From Candidatus Sericytochromatia bacterium (GTDB taxonomy: Bacteria; Cyanobacteriota; Sericytochromatia; S15B-MN24; VGJW01), in assembly GCA_035285865.1 (NCBI GenBank), contig JAYKHS010000022.1:96001-160000 (forward strand): 64,000 nt of DNA. The letters are read 5' to 3'. The notes below the pieces were generated by a model. The model did not search any database, was not told where the DNA came from, and was given only the letters and a program-made list of their open reading frames with translations. Of the stretch, positions 47,526 through 54,719 are shown piece after piece (position 1 is the first letter of the stretch; each line of letters opens with the position of its first letter). The position numbers were made by a program, and so were the translations under genes.

Positions 47526-48557
47526 TCAGAGCGTGCTCTTCAGGAAGGTCTCGATGATCGGGGTCACGGTGCGTTCGCCCCGCTGGCCGACGGCGCTGTT
47601 CATGCGGGCGTGGTCATAGCCCCTCGACGTCACCAGCTGGAATCTGTCCCCCTGGAGGCCTGGATCGCAGGCAACGGTGGCTTCGTGGAAGCTCCGCGCG
47701 TGCCCGACTCGCGTGGCCTCGCCTTGCACGAGGACCAGCATCGGCGCAACTCCGGTGCCGGAGACCAGTTGCAACTTGGGTGAGGCATCCCGCAGGATGT
47801 TCGGGTCGCGACCGAAGGCATTGGTGATGGCGTCGGCGAGCCATGGCATGTCGCTTCGGACCGTCAGGTCATAGCTTGCGCTGTCGTTGGCAACGACGCC
47901 GCGGATGTTGGCCGGCGACAGGCCTGCCTCTCTCAGATAAAGCGGATGCGTCGCCGCAAGCGTGGCCAGATGGGCTCCGGCAGAGTGCCCCATAAGGGCG
48001 ATGCGGCCCGGGTCACCGCCGAACCGGGCGATGTTGCGGTACACCCAGCCCAGGCCCGCCGCGACATCGCGGATCTGGGCGGGATGCATCGGTCTCCTGG
48101 TCACCGGCAGCCAGGGATGGGCGAGCCGGTAGTTGAGGGATACGAAGATCCAGCCCTGGTCGTTGGCCCACCGGGGCTTGTCCGACATGCCGTGCGCCTT
48201 GTCGCCGATCTTCCACGCGCCCCCGTGGATGTAGACCAGAACGGGTCGGCGGGTGCTGGCGGTCACCGTGCCGTAGATGTCCAAGCCTTGTTCGCGATGG
48301 CTCCCGTAGGCGATGTCCTTCCACGCGCGACGCCGGGTGAGGGCCGAAGACGATTGGGTGGTAGCCGCGCCGCCGAGGCTTTGGATCTGGCTGCCGATTT
48401 CCTCGGAGCCTTCGCGGGGCAGGGCCTCGGCGTTCATGCTGGTAGCCGTGGCCTCGGTCTCGAGGGCAGCGAACATCGGGTTCTGGGCGCAACCCGTGAG
48501 AACCCCTGCGAGAGCCAGTCTGGATGCGGATGCTGCGAGTTTGCGGACGAGGTGCAT
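47526..48557 (-). CDS. HSL-family esterase/lipase lipoprotein
   Basis: Lipobox LTGC; YIHGGAW, NYRL, GHSAG. Confidence 0.88.
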   Translation of the reverse strand: MHLVRKLAASASRLALAGVLTGCAQNPMFAALETEATATSMNAEALPREGSEEIGSQIQSLGGAATTQSSSALTRRRAWKDIAYGSHREQGLDIYGTVTASTRRPVLVYIHGGAWKIGDKAHGMSDKPRWANDQGWIFVSLNYRLAHPWLPVTRRPMHPAQIRDVAAGLGWVYRNIARFGGDPGRIALMGHSAGAHLATLAATHPLYLREAGLSPANIRGVVANDSASYDLTVRSDMPWLADAITNAFGRDPNILRDASPKLQLVSGTGVAPMLVLVQGEATRVGHARSFHEATVACDPGLQGDRFQLVTSRGYDHARMNSAVGQRGERTVTPIIETFLKSTL

Positions 48558-48688: not shown

Positions 48689-48697
48689 TGCCATAAT
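48689..48697 (+). promoter_or_regulatory. Extended -10 element, leaderless spacing
   Basis: TG-C-CATAAT, 6 nt before ATG 48704; no Shine-Dalgarno sequence. Confidence 0.5.
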
Positions 48698-48703
48698 GTC
48701 CGG

Positions 48704-49483
48704 ATGGAATACGACCGCTTTGCCGGCGTTTTCGGGGTGTGGGCCGCGACGGCGGGGTCCACGGCCGCAAACAGGAGCTTCTACCTTGACGCCTATGCGG
48801 CAGCCGGGGAGGGGCCTGTCGTCGAGCTGGGGGTGGGCGACGGCCGTCTGATTCTCGAGGCAGCGCGTGCAGGGCGCGCGATGCACGGAGTCGAGGGCTC
48901 GGCAGCCATGCTGGCCGTCTGTCGCGATCGCGCCGAGAAAGCGGGGCTTCTTGATCGCCTCACGCTGATCCATGCCGACTTCACGAGCTTCGTCCTGCCT
49001 GAACCGGCGACGCTGATCGCGATGCCCTATCACACGATGCCTCATCTGCTCGAGCCGGCGACCAAACTCGCAGCCTTGCGACAGATTCACCGGCAATTGA
49101 GGCCCGGGGGGCACTTCCTCTTTGACGACTTCGTGATCAAGCCGGAGGCCATCGACAGGATGCGGCAGGTCCAGCTTCGCGCGCGCTATCGCAATGAGGC
49201 CGGCCAGGACAGCCTCTTCTGGGTGACGTCCATCGTTGACGAGCAGACCCAGCGGATTGAGGCCATCACCTGGGAGGACACTCTGGACGAAGCCGGCGTG
49301 ATGATCCAGCGCCGTTATCGCCCACTGACCTTCTCGTGGCAGTCGCCGGAGCAGGCCGCCGCCTTGTTGCAAGAGGCCGGCTTCACGATCGAGGCCTGCT
49401 GGGGGGACTTTCACCGCACGCCTTTCGACCCCGCGAAGGCAGAGGAACAGGTGTGGCTGGTGCGCAAGGAGGGAGACCGATGA
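48704..49483 (+). CDS. Class I SAM-dependent methyltransferase
   Basis: VVELGVGDGR motif I, GVEGSAAML, HADF, LRPGGHFLFD. Confidence 0.9.
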   Translation: MEYDRFAGVFGVWAATAGSTAANRSFYLDAYAAAGEGPVVELGVGDGRLILEAARAGRAMHGVEGSAAMLAVCRDRAEKAGLLDRLTLIHADFTSFVLPEPATLIAMPYHTMPHLLEPATKLAALRQIHRQLRPGGHFLFDDFVIKPEAIDRMRQVQLRARYRNEAGQDSLFWVTSIVDEQTQRIEAITWEDTLDEAGVMIQRRYRPLTFSWQSPEQAAALLQEAGFTIEACWGDFHRTPFDPAKAEEQVWLVRKEGDR

Positions 49484-49839
49484 TCGGAACGACAGGCCTG
49501 AGGCAGCTCCGGATCGATTGCATCGTGGGCATCTATCCCCACGAGCGGGCCAATGAGCAGACCGTCTATCTGGATGTCGAACTGGACAACGATTTCGCTG
49601 CTGCCGACGCCTCCGATGCGATTGCCGACGCCTTGGACTATGACGGCGTCGCCTCGAGGCTGACGGCCTTGCTGCAGGAGCGGCGCTTCCAACTACTGGA
49701 GGCCATGGCCGAGGAGAGCGCGCGGATGCTGCTTGAGGCCTTCCCGACGGTCACGGCCGTTCGCCTGCGTATCGAGAAGCCTGCGGCGGTGCCTGCGGCG
49801 GTCTGCTCCTACGTCCGGCTCGAGCGGCATCGCGCATGA
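49480..49839 (+). CDS. folB: Dihydroneopterin aldolase
   Basis: IVGIYPHER..EQ, LDY, FQLLEAMAE, IEKPAAVP; ATGA overlaps at both ends. Confidence 0.9.
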   Translation: MIGTTGLRQLRIDCIVGIYPHERANEQTVYLDVELDNDFAAADASDAIADALDYDGVASRLTALLQERRFQLLEAMAEESARMLLEAFPTVTAVRLRIEKPAAVPAAVCSYVRLERHRA

Positions 49840-50585
49840 CGGACGCACCTGCCCGACAGGCGCCGGGCCAACCCGTCGCCGTCGTCACGGGAGGGGCCCG
49901 CCGCCTCGGTCGGGCTTTGGGGCTCATGCTGGTGCGACGGGGGTATCGTCTGGTCTGCCTCTATCGCACGTCCCGCGAGGACGTCCGGACGCTTGAGGCC
50001 GCAGTGGCGGAACTCGGGGGGAGGATGCGGGGCCTACCCGTCGACATTGCCGATCGCGAGGCCGTGGCGGGAGTCTTCGCGGACATCGCGGCACACGAGG
50101 GTCGGGTGGACGTGCTGGTCAACAACGTGGGCAACTACAACCCGCAGCCCATGGATGCCCTGGATCCCGAGGGTTGGGACGCGACGCTCGGTGCAAACCT
50201 CTCGGGGGCCTACTACGCGTCCTACCACGCCTTGCGCCTGATGCCGGACGGCGGCTCCATCGTCAACATCGGGATGGCGGGGCTCGAGGGCACGCGGGCC
50301 AGCCGCATGGCCGTGGACTACTATGTCAGCAAGACCGGCCTGCTCTCCCTGACGCGCTCGATGGCTCTGGCGTGCGGCCCGAGGGGAATCCGCGTCAACA
50401 TGGTCTCGCCCGGACAACTCGACAACTCGGTGGACCTGCCCGGGCCCGAGCAACTGCGTCGCGAAATCCCGATCGGGCGCGCCGGAACCATGGAGGACAT
50501 GGCTGGGGCCGTCGCCTTCTTGTTGGACTCCCCGTATGTCACGGGGGTGAACCTCGACGTCGCCGGGGGGTATCGCCTCGGATGA
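49836..50585 (+). CDS. SDR oxidoreductase, pteridine reductase (FolM/PTR1)-like
   Basis: TGGARRLG, LVNN, YYVSK, RVNMVSPG; adjacent to folB. Confidence 0.8.
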   Translation: MTDAPARQAPGQPVAVVTGGARRLGRALGLMLVRRGYRLVCLYRTSREDVRTLEAAVAELGGRMRGLPVDIADREAVAGVFADIAAHEGRVDVLVNNVGNYNPQPMDALDPEGWDATLGANLSGAYYASYHALRLMPDGGSIVNIGMAGLEGTRASRMAVDYYVSKTGLLSLTRSMALACGPRGIRVNMVSPGQLDNSVDLPGPEQLRREIPIGRAGTMEDMAGAVAFLLDSPYVTGVNLDVAGGYRLG

Positions 50586-51733
50586 GCTTGGCCCGGCGCT
50601 TCGTGCCGCTCAGGGACCGGCAGGCCGACTGGGCCATGCGCTGCGCGATGGTGCGGGATGCCGAGCAGTTCTTGTACTTGTCGACGTTCTATCTCGAGCA
50701 GGACGAGTACGGAGCCGAGATGCTGGACCTGCTCGCCGCCGCCCAGGCCCGAGGCGTGCGCGTCGCACTCGTCATCGACAGCTTCGGGCAGCGTCTCGGG
50801 GGAACCCTGATGTCGACCGCTCAGCGCGAGGCGCTGGGCCGTACCTTGGACAAGCTGGTCCGGGATGGTGCGCGGGTGACGCACTATGCGCCGCCCCGGT
50901 GGATGCAGCGACGCGTCGGCGGTGGGCAACACGTCAAAATCCAGGTCTCCGATGCCGGATGCTTGATCCTGACGAGCGGCAACATCACACGGACCTCGTT
51001 CGCGCATTGGCGCGAATATGCCGTGGCGGTCGAGGGTGCGGTCGTACCGGAGGTCATGGCCAGTTGGGAGGCCATCGGGGGGACCCTCGACCCGCGCGAT
51101 CGGGCACACCTCGCGGCGCTGGCCCGCGAGGCACCGGGCGACATCGACATGGCGTACGGCTTCTGCAACCCGAATCTGCATCAGGGTTCGACGGGCCCGT
51201 GGCTCTGGACCGGAACCAATGCCCTGACGGACCGGATGGTCGAGATGGTTGATGCCGCCCGGCATGAGCTGTTGGTGAGCTCTTTCTACTTCAAGCCTGC
51301 GCCCGTGCTCGAGGCGGCCGTCCTGAAGGCTGCCCGACGGGGCGTGCATGTCGAGATCCATCACTCGCACCGCGAGTCCCTCGAGGCGACGGATCTTGCC
51401 TGGGTCGCCGCGGCCGTGCGCTATCCGCAGTTGCTCGAGGCCGGTGTTCATGTTCATGAGCATCCAGCCGGAGAACATTCCAAGATCTGCGTGGTGGATC
51501 GCCAATGGGCCGCATTCGGCAGCTACAACTTCGAGGAGCCGGCCCACGATCGCCTGGCCGAGGCGATGTTGCTCTCTCGCGATCCGAGAGCGGTCTCGCC
51601 TGCCTTGGCCGTGTTCGAGGAGCTTCGGGGCATGCCGGACCGGCTGGAGGTCACGCCCGAAGTCATGGGAGCATGGTCCCGGGAACTGGCCGGACGCATA
51701 CGGCGCTGGGGGAGATTCCGATGGTGGCTCTGA
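50582..51733 (+). CDS. Phospholipase D-superfamily protein, cytoplasmic, two HKD motifs
   Basis: HVKIQVSD...SGN and HSKICVVD...GSYN; no signal peptide or TM helix. Confidence 0.85.
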   Translation: MSLARRFVPLRDRQADWAMRCAMVRDAEQFLYLSTFYLEQDEYGAEMLDLLAAAQARGVRVALVIDSFGQRLGGTLMSTAQREALGRTLDKLVRDGARVTHYAPPRWMQRRVGGGQHVKIQVSDAGCLILTSGNITRTSFAHWREYAVAVEGAVVPEVMASWEAIGGTLDPRDRAHLAALAREAPGDIDMAYGFCNPNLHQGSTGPWLWTGTNALTDRMVEMVDAARHELLVSSFYFKPAPVLEAAVLKAARRGVHVEIHHSHRESLEATDLAWVAAAVRYPQLLEAGVHVHEHPAGEHSKICVVDRQWAAFGSYNFEEPAHDRLAEAMLLSRDPRAVSPALAVFEELRGMPDRLEVTPEVMGAWSRELAGRIRRWGRFRWWL

Positions 51734-52302
51734 CCCGTACTGTCGAGATCGAGCACAAGTTCGTGGTGCCGCCCGATTTCGACCGGGACGCTCTGGGAAG
51801 GGTCATGGAGGGCCTTGCTCCCGTGCGCCGGATTGCCCTTGACGTGGCGGATCGTTACTTCCTGACAGCTGACGGCAAGGCGCGGCAGTACATCCTCCGG
51901 CATCGTTTCGATGACGAGTTGCACCACCTCACGATCAAGTCCTTCGGGGAGGATCCCGAGATGCGGGACGAGATCAATCTGGACCTGGGCCATCATGCCG
52001 GCGACCAGGCGGCCACCATAGATGCTTTCGTGGGGCGCATGGGGGTCGTCTGGTCCGGTACCTTGTCCAAGACCATCCGGGTGTGGGTCTTTCCGGATTG
52101 CGAGGTGGTCCACTACATCGCACGGGGTGGCGATCGGGAGGTCCATTGCGTCGAGTTCGAGGCAACCCGGACCGAGGATCTGGCCGAGGCGATTGCGGTT
52201 CTCGAGCGATATGAACAGCTGGCGGGATTCGAGGCTTCCCGGCGCACGCACGATACGCTCGTGGATCTGATTTTTCCGGGTATTCTTCCGCGCCAGCGTT
52301 AG
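51721..52302 (+). CDS. CYTH/triphosphate-tunnel metalloenzyme
   Basis: N-terminal EIEHK (ExExK), DRYF, LRHR, LTIK, RDEI, K..R, VEFE. Confidence 0.75.
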   Translation: MVALTRTVEIEHKFVVPPDFDRDALGRVMEGLAPVRRIALDVADRYFLTADGKARQYILRHRFDDELHHLTIKSFGEDPEMRDEINLDLGHHAGDQAATIDAFVGRMGVVWSGTLSKTIRVWVFPDCEVVHYIARGGDREVHCVEFEATRTEDLAEAIAVLERYEQLAGFEASRRTHDTLVDLIFPGILPRQR

Positions 52303-52404
52303 CGGCGGAAGATTGTTGCGCAACCATTAAAGCTAGCTTGCGCCGACTTGGTGGCGTCGATGGTTCCCTTGTGGAAGTCCGCAGAGGGCAACGGGGGGAG
52401 CGAC

Positions 52405-53307
52405 ATGACGGCACGTGCGATGACGGCATCGGCGCTCAAGGCGGATCAGGCCAGCGATGCGGCTGCCCGCAAGGCTGCTGCCGAGGCTGCCCGCAAGGCC
52501 GCGGAAGAGGCCGCGCGCAAGGCTGCGGAAGAGGCCGCGCGCAAGGCCGCCGAGGAGGCCGCCCGGCGTCCCCTGCCGACTCGGGACAATGAAGTGCGTG
52601 CGGCGGCTCGCGCCAACGACGGTGCTGCCCGCTCGTCCCTCCGGCTTGAGGAGCCGGCTCCGGCCGCGAAGGTGGCTCGGGGCGCCGCGGTGGATCATCA
52701 CCACGTCGATCGCTACAGCGATGACGTGAAGGTCATGCAGCAGCGGATGCAGGCCGCCGGCATCAATCCCGGGCCGATCGACGGTCTCAAGGGGCCCCTG
52801 ACGCGAGCGGCGATGGCGGCCTACGAGAAGAAGTTCGGGAAGTCGGCAGCCGAGGGCCTCAAGGTCGACCCCGCATTCGAGGAGGTCCCCGGAAGCGAAC
52901 GGGTGGCCGCGGGCGGCGGGGTGGACAGTTCGGTCCTCGGCAAGGTTTCCGGCACCGTCAAGGAGTGGATTGCCGAGGCCAAGGAGATTCTGATTCGGGC
53001 GGGCGTGCCGGCGCACAGGCTCAACGAGGCTGCCATCGCGACCATCATTCGTCACGAGTCGGGGGGGAACCCCAGGGCTGTCAACAACTGGGACTCGAAC
53101 GCGCGGAAGGGCACGCCCTCCAAGGGGCTGATGCAGACGATCCAGCCGACCTTCGATCGTTGGAAGTTGCCCGGCATGGACCAGATCATGAACCCGGTCC
53201 ACAACATCGTCGCCGGCGTCCGCTACGCGCTCAACCGCTACGGTTCCCTCGAGAACGTGCCGGGTATCCGTAGCATGGCCCGGGGCGGGGCGTACAAGGG
53301 CTACTGA
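52405..53307 (+). CDS. Lytic transglycosylase (SLT) with a peptidoglycan-binding domain
   Basis: VKVMQQRM...GPIDGLKGPLTRAAM (PG_binding_1); HESGGNP...NWDSN..KG.PSKGLMQ, RYG (SLT); GGAG RBS. Confidence 0.88.
   Translation: MTARAMTASALKADQASDAAARKAAAEAARKAAEEAARKAAEEAARKAAEEAARRPLPTRDNEVRAAARANDGAARSSLRLEEPAPAAKVARGAAVDHHHVDRYSDDVKVMQQRMQAAGINPGPIDGLKGPLTRAAMAAYEKKFGKSAAEGLKVDPAFEEVPGSERVAAGGGVDSSVLGKVSGTVKEWIAEAKEILIRAGVPAHRLNEAAIATIIRHESGGNPRAVNNWDSNARKGTPSKGLMQTIQPTFDRWKLPGMDQIMNPVHNIVAGVRYALNRYGSLENVPGIRSMARGGAYKGY
52465..52560 (+). repeat. Four in-frame 24-bp tandem repeats encoding ARKAA(A/E)EA
   Basis: GC(C/G)CGCAAGGC.GC.G..GAGGC. repeated four times. Confidence 0.85.
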
Positions 53308-53465: not shown

Positions 53466-54719
53466 TCAACGCTTGCCGACCCCGCTCTTCGCGAGGTGGT
53501 TGACCACGCTTGTCGCCGGTGCCCCGAAGTTCATGAGAATCTCGGCCTGGCTCTGGCCCAGAGCCGTCATGTCTCCGTAGAGCTTGCCCCCGAGGCCGAC
53601 CCGGAAGTTCGGCATGACACCCTTCACGAGGGCTTCGGCCTGAGCATCGATCGACGAGGCGACGACCTGCTTCCAGTGGTCCGGCCGCAGCGCACCGGCC
53701 ATGAAGCCCGTTGCCTTGACGGCACCTTCCTCGAAGTGGCGGTAGGCCTGGTTCTCGAAGGTCTTTGCGGTGTAGGTGAATGCCTCGTCGATTTCCTGAC
53801 CCGTGAGCTTCGCGATGGGCCTGCCCAGACGCTCGCCCTGCGACGCGAGGGCCGTGGCCCGGTTCTGCAGGGTCTGCACCACGTGGACGTATTCATGCCA
53901 ATCCGTACCGCCCCCCATCGTCTTGATGGAGACCTCGGTCGCGCTGGCATGGACCTCGGGCAGCATGCTCTTGCCGAACTTGAAGTCCATGCCATAGCGG
54001 GCCGCGAAGGGCTGGAGCCGTCCGAGGAAGGCCTCTGCCTCGCGGGCACCGAGCTTGCCGTTGTCGGGCAGGGTGCCGACGATGGCCTTGAGGTCGTCGG
54101 CGACGGCCGTTGCTGCAGCAGGCTTGGCCTTGAGCATGCCCTTGACGGCATCCTTGGCGACGCTGGCACCGAAGCGGGCTTCGCCCTGGCGGATCAATTG
54201 CTGGGCTGCCGCGCGTCGGGCAGAGCCATTGACCATGCCGCCCACGCCCATGAAGTTGGTGGCTGCGAGGCCTGCATCGAGCGCCGTCACGGCGGTGGCC
54301 TTGGCGAGGTCGGCACGGGTGGCGACGCCGGAACCCGAGAGGTAGCCCAGCTTGGCCGCGCTGCCCTCGAGCTCGGCCACGTTGGACATCTGCGCGAGGA
54401 ACTTCATCACCCCGGCCCCGATCCGCTTGAGCTGGCCCAGTGGCTTCGCGATTCGTCCGTTGTCCAGATCCGCCTTGGCCTTGCGGGCGGTCTCATCCCA
54501 GAAACGGATGGCCGAACCGCCGATCCCGTCGCGCTTCGCCTCCTGATAGCTGGTCTCGGCGTCACGGCGCACCTGAGCGCGCTGCAGTTCGAGCCGGTCC
54601 TGCACGGGTTTGAGCTTGGCGGTGCCCGGGCGCCTGCCAGCAGATGGGCGCGCTGCCGCGGCAGGGGCCTTTCCCGGCCGCGATGTCTGGGCTTTGGCCG
54701 AGGACTTCTTGACGCTCAT
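53466..54719 (-). CDS. Hypothetical protein with a HExxH zincin-like motif
   Basis: WHEYVHVVQ with downstream FENQAY; strong GC3 codon bias; disordered basic N-terminus. Confidence 0.65.
   Translation of the reverse strand: MSVKKSSAKAQTSRPGKAPAAAARPSAGRRPGTAKLKPVQDRLELQRAQVRRDAETSYQEAKRDGIGGSAIRFWDETARKAKADLDNGRIAKPLGQLKRIGAGVMKFLAQMSNVAELEGSAAKLGYLSGSGVATRADLAKATAVTALDAGLAATNFMGVGGMVNGSARRAAAQQLIRQGEARFGASVAKDAVKGMLKAKPAAATAVADDLKAIVGTLPDNGKLGAREAEAFLGRLQPFAARYGMDFKFGKSMLPEVHASATEVSIKTMGGGTDWHEYVHVVQTLQNRATALASQGERLGRPIAKLTGQEIDEAFTYTAKTFENQAYRHFEEGAVKATGFMAGALRPDHWKQVVASSIDAQAEALVKGVMPNFRVGLGGKLYGDMTALGQSQAEILMNFGAPATSVVNHLAKSGVGKR

Follow-up and report, generated by a model that had tools for sequence, protein, structure and literature searches.

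Dephosphorylation of dihydroneopterin triphosphate was described in 2007 as a step whose gene was missing in most bacterial genomes, and the same account records that dihydroneopterin aldolase (DHNA) also epimerises neopterin into monapterin and that TGX3RXG is a motif of pteridine reductases (PMC1971073). In Agrobacterium tumefaciens, 2'-O-methyl-tetrahydromonapterin is made with PruA and a methyltransferase that the study left unidentified (PMC4488946). Here we analyze a cassette of five genes, encoding a methyltransferase, a FolB enzyme, a short-chain dehydrogenase/reductase (SDR), a phospholipase D (PLD)-superfamily enzyme and a CYTH-family enzyme, located at positions 48704..52302 of a 64,000-nucleotide stretch (hereafter the window) of contig JAYKHS010000022.1 from a Candidatus Sericytochromatia bacterium. 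No description of this gene cluster was found in a literature search that had most subscription journals outside its reach. With slightly better than even confidence, we propose that the cassette diverts 7,8-dihydroneopterin triphosphate towards a pterin of the tetrahydromonapterin type that is unconjugated, reduced and probably methylated. New in this work are a host in which folP and folC were not detected, CYTH contexts beyond the cassette together with a fusion, and a motif-based prediction of the CYTH reaction.

The operon is real and consists of five intact genes under purifying selection. It encodes, on the forward strand, a class I S-adenosylmethionine-dependent methyltransferase of the small-molecule type (48704..49483, 259 aa; Methyltransf_25 PF13649, 8e-16), a FolB-type dihydroneopterin aldolase/epimerase (49480..49839, 119 aa; PF02152, 3.5e-29), a pteridine-reductase-like SDR with TGGARRLG and YYVSK motifs (49836..50585, 249 aa; adh_short_C2 and a sub-threshold match to TmpR NF012208), a two-HKD PLD-superfamily enzyme (50582..51733, 383 aa; PLDc_2 PF13091, 4e-31, in two stretches) and a CYTH/triphosphate-tunnel enzyme (51721..52302, 193 aa; CYTH PF01928, 1.7e-5), all five proteins scoring above the curated Pfam cut-offs of these families (FolB being PF02152). 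Each open reading frame (ORF) is open at these coordinates and overlaps the next, with ATGA junctions at 49480, 49836 and 50582 and a 13-nt overlap, ATGGTGGCTCTGA, between the PLD and CYTH genes at 51721-51733; every coordinate given in an earlier reading made from the letters of the window alone (the sequence-only reading) was thus reproduced. When compared to three relatives, each of the five genes displays a ratio of nonsynonymous to synonymous substitution rates (dN/dS) of about 0.08-0.17.

Conservation of the neighbourhood, which the sequence-only reading had proposed to check, was borne out. A one-genome-per-species scan with the PLD yielded 146 relatives, the best 80 of which serve for the locus counts; 12 of these 80 loci were left out for short flanks and 68 adequately flanked loci remain. 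By tblastn, the SDR was found in 77 of the best 80 loci, the CYTH in 73, the FolB in 72 and the methyltransferase in 54, always in the same gene order. Among the flanked loci, 45/68 carry all five genes in order, 17/68 lack the methyltransferase only and 3/68 consist of the PLD alone, FolB-SDR-PLD-CYTH being present in 62/68. A sixth partner was not detected, no other ORF cluster occurring in more than 15 of the 80 loci. The five genes form a conserved, self-contained accessory cassette.

The closest cassette records are titled Candidatus Sericytochromatia or Tanganyikabacteria and most others Acidobacteria/Vicinamibacterales; a few bear other taxon labels, some of which are probably wrong, two of them falling in the acidobacterial order. 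PLD orthologues of 70-81% identity were found in 3/3 genomes of the host genus, and the other 57 relatives searched gave weak PLD-family matches only. In one acidobacterial order, the CYTH of the cassette occurs in 17/161 genomes (at least 90% complete), and the cassette is therefore accessory there. In a tree, the cassette FolB forms a clade apart from those FolBs of the host's class that are linked to folP, consistent with horizontal gain, and the host genus has probably acquired the cassette horizontally. This acquisition would not be recent since G+C content at third codon positions ranges over 0.75-0.84 in the cassette, near the 0.82-0.86 of its flanking genes. Gene-tree distances correlate between cassette genes at 0.44-0.77, which fits co-inheritance with some exchange. 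A phage origin, hinted at by the Atlas taxa, was rejected as no relatives were found in viral contigs or phage records and no PHROG matched; plasmids likewise gave no PLD match at E≤1e-20. In genome G227, two near-identical CYTH-FolB pairs lie on different contigs, reflecting either duplication or assembly redundancy.

The predicted model of the CYTH enzyme (predicted local distance difference test, pLDDT, 93.2) displays the triphosphate-tunnel fold with eight strands. It aligns with 2dc4 at Z 19.1 (root-mean-square deviation, rmsd, 2.0; 161 residues aligned) and with CyaB and YgiF at Z 16.4 and 16.1, its nearest folds being archaeal triphosphate-tunnel (TTM)-type proteins and YgiF; at the profile level, no PDB entry was matched at E≤1. 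The subfamily comprises 175 clusters at E≤1e-10. Class IV cyclases are marked by HFxxxxExExK and by an Ala replacing the second Glu of ExE, and thiamine triphosphatases (ThTPases) by W/YxRxR (PMC8233210). In two sets of subfamily sequences the ExExK motif is present in 47/47 and 68/68, and the DxY, RxR and ExE motifs are found as well. The cyclase HF motif is absent from both sets (0/47 and 0/68), the second Glu of ExE is kept in all, and the ThTPase motif was detected in 0/47 and 2/68. By its motifs the CYTH is neither a cyclase nor a ThTPase, which leaves a gamma-phosphate hydrolase, and we predict that it catalyzes gamma-phosphate hydrolysis and not cyclization. With such motifs, the enzyme probably neither copies the pyrophosphate release of Nudix enzymes nor supplies a 2',3'-cyclic phosphate. 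The sequence-only reading had proposed that the CYTH could replace the Nudix-type triphosphatase: its pterin link has become stronger through the contexts and fusions described below, and the motifs speak against the same pyrophosphate-releasing reaction. Its suggestion that the PLD opens a 2',3'-cyclic phosphate is weakened, as the CYTH motifs are not those of cyclases.

The genomic surroundings of distant CYTH relatives extend this link beyond the cassette. Searching metagenomes with 7 distant CYTHs as seeds gave 129 confirmed relatives, 80 of which were kept: 47 in cassettes, 3 on uninformative fragments and 30 in other, classifiable loci, the assignment of representatives of each locus class being confirmed with Pfam and the remaining loci classed by resemblance. 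Seven of these 30 non-cassette loci display the order RibD_C - CYTH - FolB fusion - SDR, and five the order CYTH - (FolB in one) - RibD_C, behind which a Vut_1 transporter gene is oriented convergently; one has Vut_1 only, one encodes a CYTH-PTPS fusion, and in two folE is the next gene, 0.4-0.5 kb further on. Altogether FolB, FolE or PTPS is adjacent or fused in 11/30, with a RibD_C reductase in 4 more. A second CYTH-PTPS fusion was found (P0247), and in one cassette the CYTH gene is followed by one for PTPS. In a fast tree, four clades with support of 97-100, interspersed among non-pterin clades, correspond to the cassette and to the three further contexts linked to pterin genes. Because distant relatives sit by FolB, FolE or RibD_C or are fused to PTPS, the CYTH is a good candidate for a non-Nudix dihydroneopterin-triphosphate phosphatase.

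These loci also deserve description in their own right. The four-gene cluster (L176:5240-8048, L214:5330-8017 and five similar) reads RibD_C - CYTH - FolB with an extra domain - SDR, the SDR being of another family, and lies between rpsP/rimM-like genes and a dnaE-like gene; the extra C-terminal domain of its FolB appears cupin-like by eye and has no Pfam match. A tandem FolB in context B was considered and discarded since the second half is not FolB. Elsewhere (L170:5483-8297, L171-L174 and L185), GNAT - CYTH - (FolB) - RibD_C face a gene for a Vut_1 vitamin/queuosine-precursor transporter. The two CYTH-PTPS fusions are L205:54-1142 and P0247, and the PTPS half of the latter carries an ExxHGH-type motif, which we take to be PTPS-III-like.

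The same data bear on the view that the CYTH hydrolyzes inorganic or nucleotide triphosphates in general, as a housekeeping function, with pterin neighbours gathered by repeated chance clustering or for clean-up of triphosphate by-products. It carries the motifs of classical triphosphatases, its nearest folds agree, and 14 of the 30 distant loci have no nearby pterin gene. Against this view stand the PTPS fusion, the adjacency to FolE, FolB or RibD_C across four clades and an absence from 144/161 genomes of the acidobacterial order, which is unlike a housekeeping gene. We consider such a general role very improbable.

The T-fold enzyme of the cassette scores as FolB rather than as FolX. It reaches 102 bits with PF02152 (cut-off 31.8) and 71.1 with TIGR00525 (cut-off 72.15), as compared to 52.5 bits with the FolX model NF008418 (cut-off 152); it lies on a different branch from FolX and is 33% identical to E. 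coli FolB and 26% to E. coli FolX. Equivalents of E21, Y53, E73 and K98, presumably the FolB active-site residues, were found in 72/72 cassette FolBs, although FolX shares the same four, which therefore do not separate the two families.

For the SDR, TGX3RXG (here TGGARRLG) is present in 60/62 cassette sequences and YxxxK in 61/62. The best NCBIfam model is TmpR NF012208, matched over its full length at 181.5 bits, 40 above the next model and below its cut-off of 325. Pteridine reductases of the PTR1/FolM type have a catalytic Asp before the YxxxK motif; no Asp stands where FolM has FTDY, the pairwise alignment being gapped at this place. The putative identity of the SDR as a pteridine reductase thus rests on TGX3RXG and a sub-threshold profile match, with no family call above threshold.

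The methyltransferase is optional, occurring in 45 and missing from 17 of the 62 loci with FolB-SDR-PLD-CYTH. Its best solved relatives are CorZ (9SOT, 1e-24) and CcbJ (1.5e-11), with O-methyltransferases lower down; CorZ is a peptide N-methyltransferase acting on the peptide N-terminus (PMC12951456). With relatives of both N- and O-types, the methylated atom may be either N or O. That SDR and methyltransferase together yield a reduced, methylated pterin, as first suggested, is retained for reduction and methylation, with the qualification that 17/62 loci do without the methyl-transferring enzyme.

Whether the cassette could simply serve folate synthesis depends on the remainder of the pathway. 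The host genus is represented by four genomes that are 83, 86, 94 and 98% complete, and absences here are those of incomplete assemblies of related genomes. Dihydropteroate synthase (DHPS, FolP), FolC above cut-off and FolA were each detected in 0/4 of them, and neither the FolP nor the FolC of a relative matched the host genome by tblastn; a PF00809 match considered as folP proved to be methionine synthase, MetH. The host genome has FolE2, FolK, GlyA, FolD, MetH, Fmt and ThyX, and E. coli NudB found no tblastn match in it. The host genus keeps FolK and folate-using enzymes with no detectable FolP or FolC; the BT1 folate transporter was found in none of the 47 genomes of the host's class. DHPS scores above cut-off in 14 of these 47, all of which also have FolB, adjacent in 12, and FolB without DHPS is confined to the four host-genus genomes and one 74%-complete genome. 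The cassette FolB is the only one found in the host genome. Since neither FolP nor FolC was detected in the genus, the cassette is unlikely to serve folate synthesis in this host, although its SDR might additionally act as a reductase in salvage. The earlier argument, that an operon with no folK or folP is not one for folate, is weak as folK lies elsewhere in the genome, and its conclusion nevertheless holds on the genus-wide result for folP and folC.

In the acidobacterial order (that of genome G063), FolK and DHPS were each found in 157/161 genomes, those with DHPS including all 17 cassette genomes. FolB scores above cut-off in 21/161, among them all 17 CYTH-bearing genomes, so that it is present in 17/17 genomes with the cassette CYTH as compared to 4/144 others, kin not being independent, and FolA is present in 3/161. 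Near-universal FolK and DHPS despite rare FolB and FolA is a feature of this order in itself. A PTPS-III bypass in the FolB-less relatives found no support: 27/30 top PTPS loci carry C-x3-HGH, which we take to be the QueD-type PTPS motif class, the other 3 falling outside the pattern used. The argument that the cassette SDR specifically stands in for a lost folA was dropped, folA being missing in 158/161 genomes with or without the cassette. A tie between the cassette and FolE2, or a cyclic-phosphate-making cyclohydrolase, was likewise rejected since 47/54 cassette genomes have FolE, the present host having FolE2.

These distributions underlie a folate plug-in, in which CYTH and FolB feed 6-hydroxymethyl-dihydropterin to FolK and FolP and the TmpR-like SDR acts as dihydrofolate reductase in folA-less hosts; for the host studied here, this would reduce to the role of the SDR as a salvage reductase. 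The cassette would fill two gaps of the order, for which FolB and FolA are so rare, the best SDR model is a bifunctional dihydropteridine/dihydrofolate reductase, the FolB retains all four active-site residues, and the host has GlyA, FolD, MetH, Fmt and ThyX besides FolK. However, the 144/161 genomes devoid of the cassette manage without it, although nearly all of them have no FolB and no FolA; the host genus keeps five genes under purifying selection with no detectable FolP or FolC; and the PLD and methyltransferase are left unaccounted for. We regard this explanation as unlikely on the whole, while a folate-supporting role of the cassette may apply in Vicinamibacterales.

The PLD is placed directly behind FolB-SDR in 65/68 loci. 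Its first motif (HVKxxxxE/D) is present in 80/80 sequences, with E in 62 and D in 18, and the second in 79/80; hydropathy predicts no membrane helix. The predicted model (pLDDT 92.9) aligns with 7e0m at Z 32.5 (rmsd 2.8, 310 residues aligned), and the similar scores obtained with bacterial PLD (32.5), PssA (31.6), F13 (30.8) and PLD4 (30.5) indicate that the fold does not separate lipid from soluble substrates. In a fast tree of 30 rows, the cassette PLDs form a clade of their own (support 100) on a long branch, placed beside ClsB with a support of 70 that carries a long-branch warning. Their motifs, HVKIQVS[E/D] and NFE[D/E]AAHDRLAE, differ from the HRK and NxDxRS of cardiolipin synthases (Cls) in the same alignment. 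Scores stay under the NCBIfam cut-offs (ClsB 82.7 vs 281; TIGR04265 58.7 vs 290), and identity to E. coli ClsB is 24%. Grouping of the PLD with cardiolipin synthases, which the sequence-only reading had named, together with cardiolipin production, as speaking against its proposal, was not what the scores and the separate clade returned. Defence was considered as well: DISARM DrmC gave 91.8 vs 133 bits, PADLOC matches were at domain level only, and no further conserved partner gene was seen. PLD3 and PLD4 have a slow phosphatase activity through a phospho-histidine (PMC10690185), and removal or transfer of a pterin phosphate by the PLD would accordingly be chemically allowed. Its substrate is the weakest link of the pathway reading.

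A lipid function offers another account: a ClsB-like enzyme making cardiolipin or performing other transphosphatidylation, with the methyltransferase perhaps acting on the head group, the operon either joining two functions or attaching a pterin alcohol to lipid. The sub-threshold ClsB match, the fold resemblance to bacterial PLD and phosphatidylserine synthase, the YbhO/cardiolipin synthase labels of the nearest annotated predicted structures, the stand-alone orthologues at three loci and a ClsB likewise devoid of membrane helices all fit. Identity to ClsB is low, however, the branch long and separate and both motifs unlike the Cls forms; the host genome has a second, Cls-like PLD gene on contig C5, and the position behind FolB-SDR is kept almost everywhere. 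We consider a lipid role rather improbable. Beside that second gene, a convergent QueD-like gene lies 1.5 kb away (G000:C5:107363-110227), a pair also found by coordinates in three relatives and probably unrelated to the cassette.

Under the pterin reading that we favour, host FolE or FolE2 would make dihydroneopterin triphosphate from GTP, such a GTP cyclohydrolase I being available as FolE in 47/54 cassette genomes and as FolE2 in the present host, and the CYTH would take off the gamma-phosphate of the product. The PLD, in the least certain step, would remove or transfer the remaining phosphoryl group(s) through a phospho-histidine. FolB would then epimerize dihydroneopterin to dihydromonapterin or cleave it to 6-hydroxymethyl-dihydropterin, the SDR would reduce the FolB product to the tetrahydro form and the methyltransferase, where present, would add a methyl group to O or N. 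A bolder version, which we hold as doubtful, combines two propositions: that the CYTH subfamily is a third (non-Nudix, non-HD) class of dihydroneopterin-triphosphate phosphatase, employed by several lineages of bacteria, and that the PLD links the pterin phosphate to an acceptor alcohol, giving an undescribed methylated phosphodiester tetrahydropterin that would act as cofactor or signal. An analogy with euglenapterin, an N,N-dimethyl monapterin with phosphate forms, was given no weight, the one paper found merely naming this compound.

Several observations weigh against this pathway. As for a consumer of the pterin, no aromatic amino-acid hydroxylase (PhhA) was detected in 4/4 host-genus genomes. 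The CYTH only is missing from 3/68 flanked loci, and in one genome the CYTH gene comes immediately after that of FolB and neither an SDR nor a PLD gene adjoins the pair, indicating that no single enzyme is obligatory. The closest solved relative of the methyltransferase, CorZ, acts on a peptide and on no pterin. Among annotated predicted structures, those nearest to the PLD (TM scores of 0.83-0.85) are labelled cardiolipin synthase/YbhO, and stand-alone PLD orthologues of 50-52% identity exist at three spirochaete-labelled loci; their genomes gave no CYTH orthologue in those searched and no SDR orthologue in 3/3, which suggests that the PLD can work without pterin genes. Almost half of the distant CYTH loci, the 14/30 already mentioned, are devoid of pterin neighbours, several distant loci are near-duplicates, and the FolB of context B is sister to the cassette FolB, which makes this context not fully independent; about three independent associations between CYTH and pterin genes remain. 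Finally, Vicinamibacterales hosts have folE, folK and folP, hence the rest of the folate route.

Upstream of the operon, an extended -10 promoter-like element, TG-C-CATAAT (TG-n-CATAAT), was found at 48689..48697 on the forward strand, where the sequence-only reading had indicated one, 6 nt 5' of the ATG at 48704. This pattern has 3 sites in the 64-kb window, both strands counted, and the element is kept in 3/3 close relatives. Its distance of only 6 nt from the start codon suggests a leaderless transcript, and the mRNA of the cassette is probably leaderless. A standard -35/-10 scan gave no promoter, and no terminator scored above chance. The looser extended -10 motif precedes the first gene in only 7/69 loci, indicating that this promoter is not cassette-wide.

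Between an aminotransferase gene and the cassette lies an esterase gene of the BD-FAE family with a signal-peptide-like start (47526-48557, reverse strand); having no match in the loci of three relatives, it was probably inserted later. On the other side, 45 nt past the CYTH stop, a gene syntenic within the genus only (52348-53307, forward strand) encodes an SLT lytic transglycosylase that has both a peptidoglycan-binding domain and an AARKAAEE repeat. It is followed by a 417-aa ORF (53466-54719, reverse strand) with no Pfam match and a HEYVH zinc-motif-like stretch.

From these comparisons, the cassette likely offers a separate pterin, through a tunnel-fold phosphatase predicted to act at a step with no known gene in many bacteria. 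The CYTH, as one small soluble protein, is a testable candidate for the missing dephosphorylation gene, and a pterin role, if true, would add a pterin to the substrates of the CYTH superfamily. The cassette also provides a candidate pterin methyltransferase, an activity observed in Agrobacterium with no gene assigned to it (PMC4488946). Its PLD, ClsB-like and annotated in databases as a cardiolipin synthase, may have a small molecule as substrate. That a host retains the cassette with neither folP nor folC detected suggests that the pterin does a job other than that of folate.

FolQ/NudB (Nudix) and the proposed HD-domain FolQ2 share with the CYTH the proposed substrate and a clustering type of evidence (PMC1971073), whereas the triphosphate tunnel is an unrelated fold whose motifs predict release of the gamma-phosphate, not of pyrophosphate. 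The CYTH/TTM triphosphatases (SaTTM, YgiF), CyaB and ThTPase have the same eight-stranded tunnel with ExExK, DxY, RxR and ExE; the cassette CYTH nevertheless constitutes its own subfamily, with neither the cyclase HF nor the ThTPase W/YxRxR motif. ClsB (YbhO), PssA and PLD3/4 show the fold of the cassette PLD, two HxKxxxxD/E per chain and, as there, no N-terminal membrane helices, yet the cassette PLD scores far under the family cut-off, is 24% identical to ClsB and differs in motif residues and clade. TmpR, named in its model as a dihydropteridine/dihydrofolate reductase, is the best SDR model, at 181 bits vs a cut-off of 325. The closest parallel is the tetrahydromonapterin branch (FolE - FolX - phosphatase - FolM; PruA), in which, as in the cassette, a FolB/FolX-family enzyme and a TGX3RXG SDR stand outside the folate operon and for which a methylated product has a precedent (PMC4488946). 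In contrast to that branch, the cassette enzyme scores as FolB and not FolX, its SDR is nearer TmpR than FolM-like models, the operon adds two phospho-processing enzymes and a methyltransferase, and a PhhA-type consumer was not found in the genus. We conclude that the cassette would work like the tetrahydromonapterin branch but is apparently not the FolX-FolM system.

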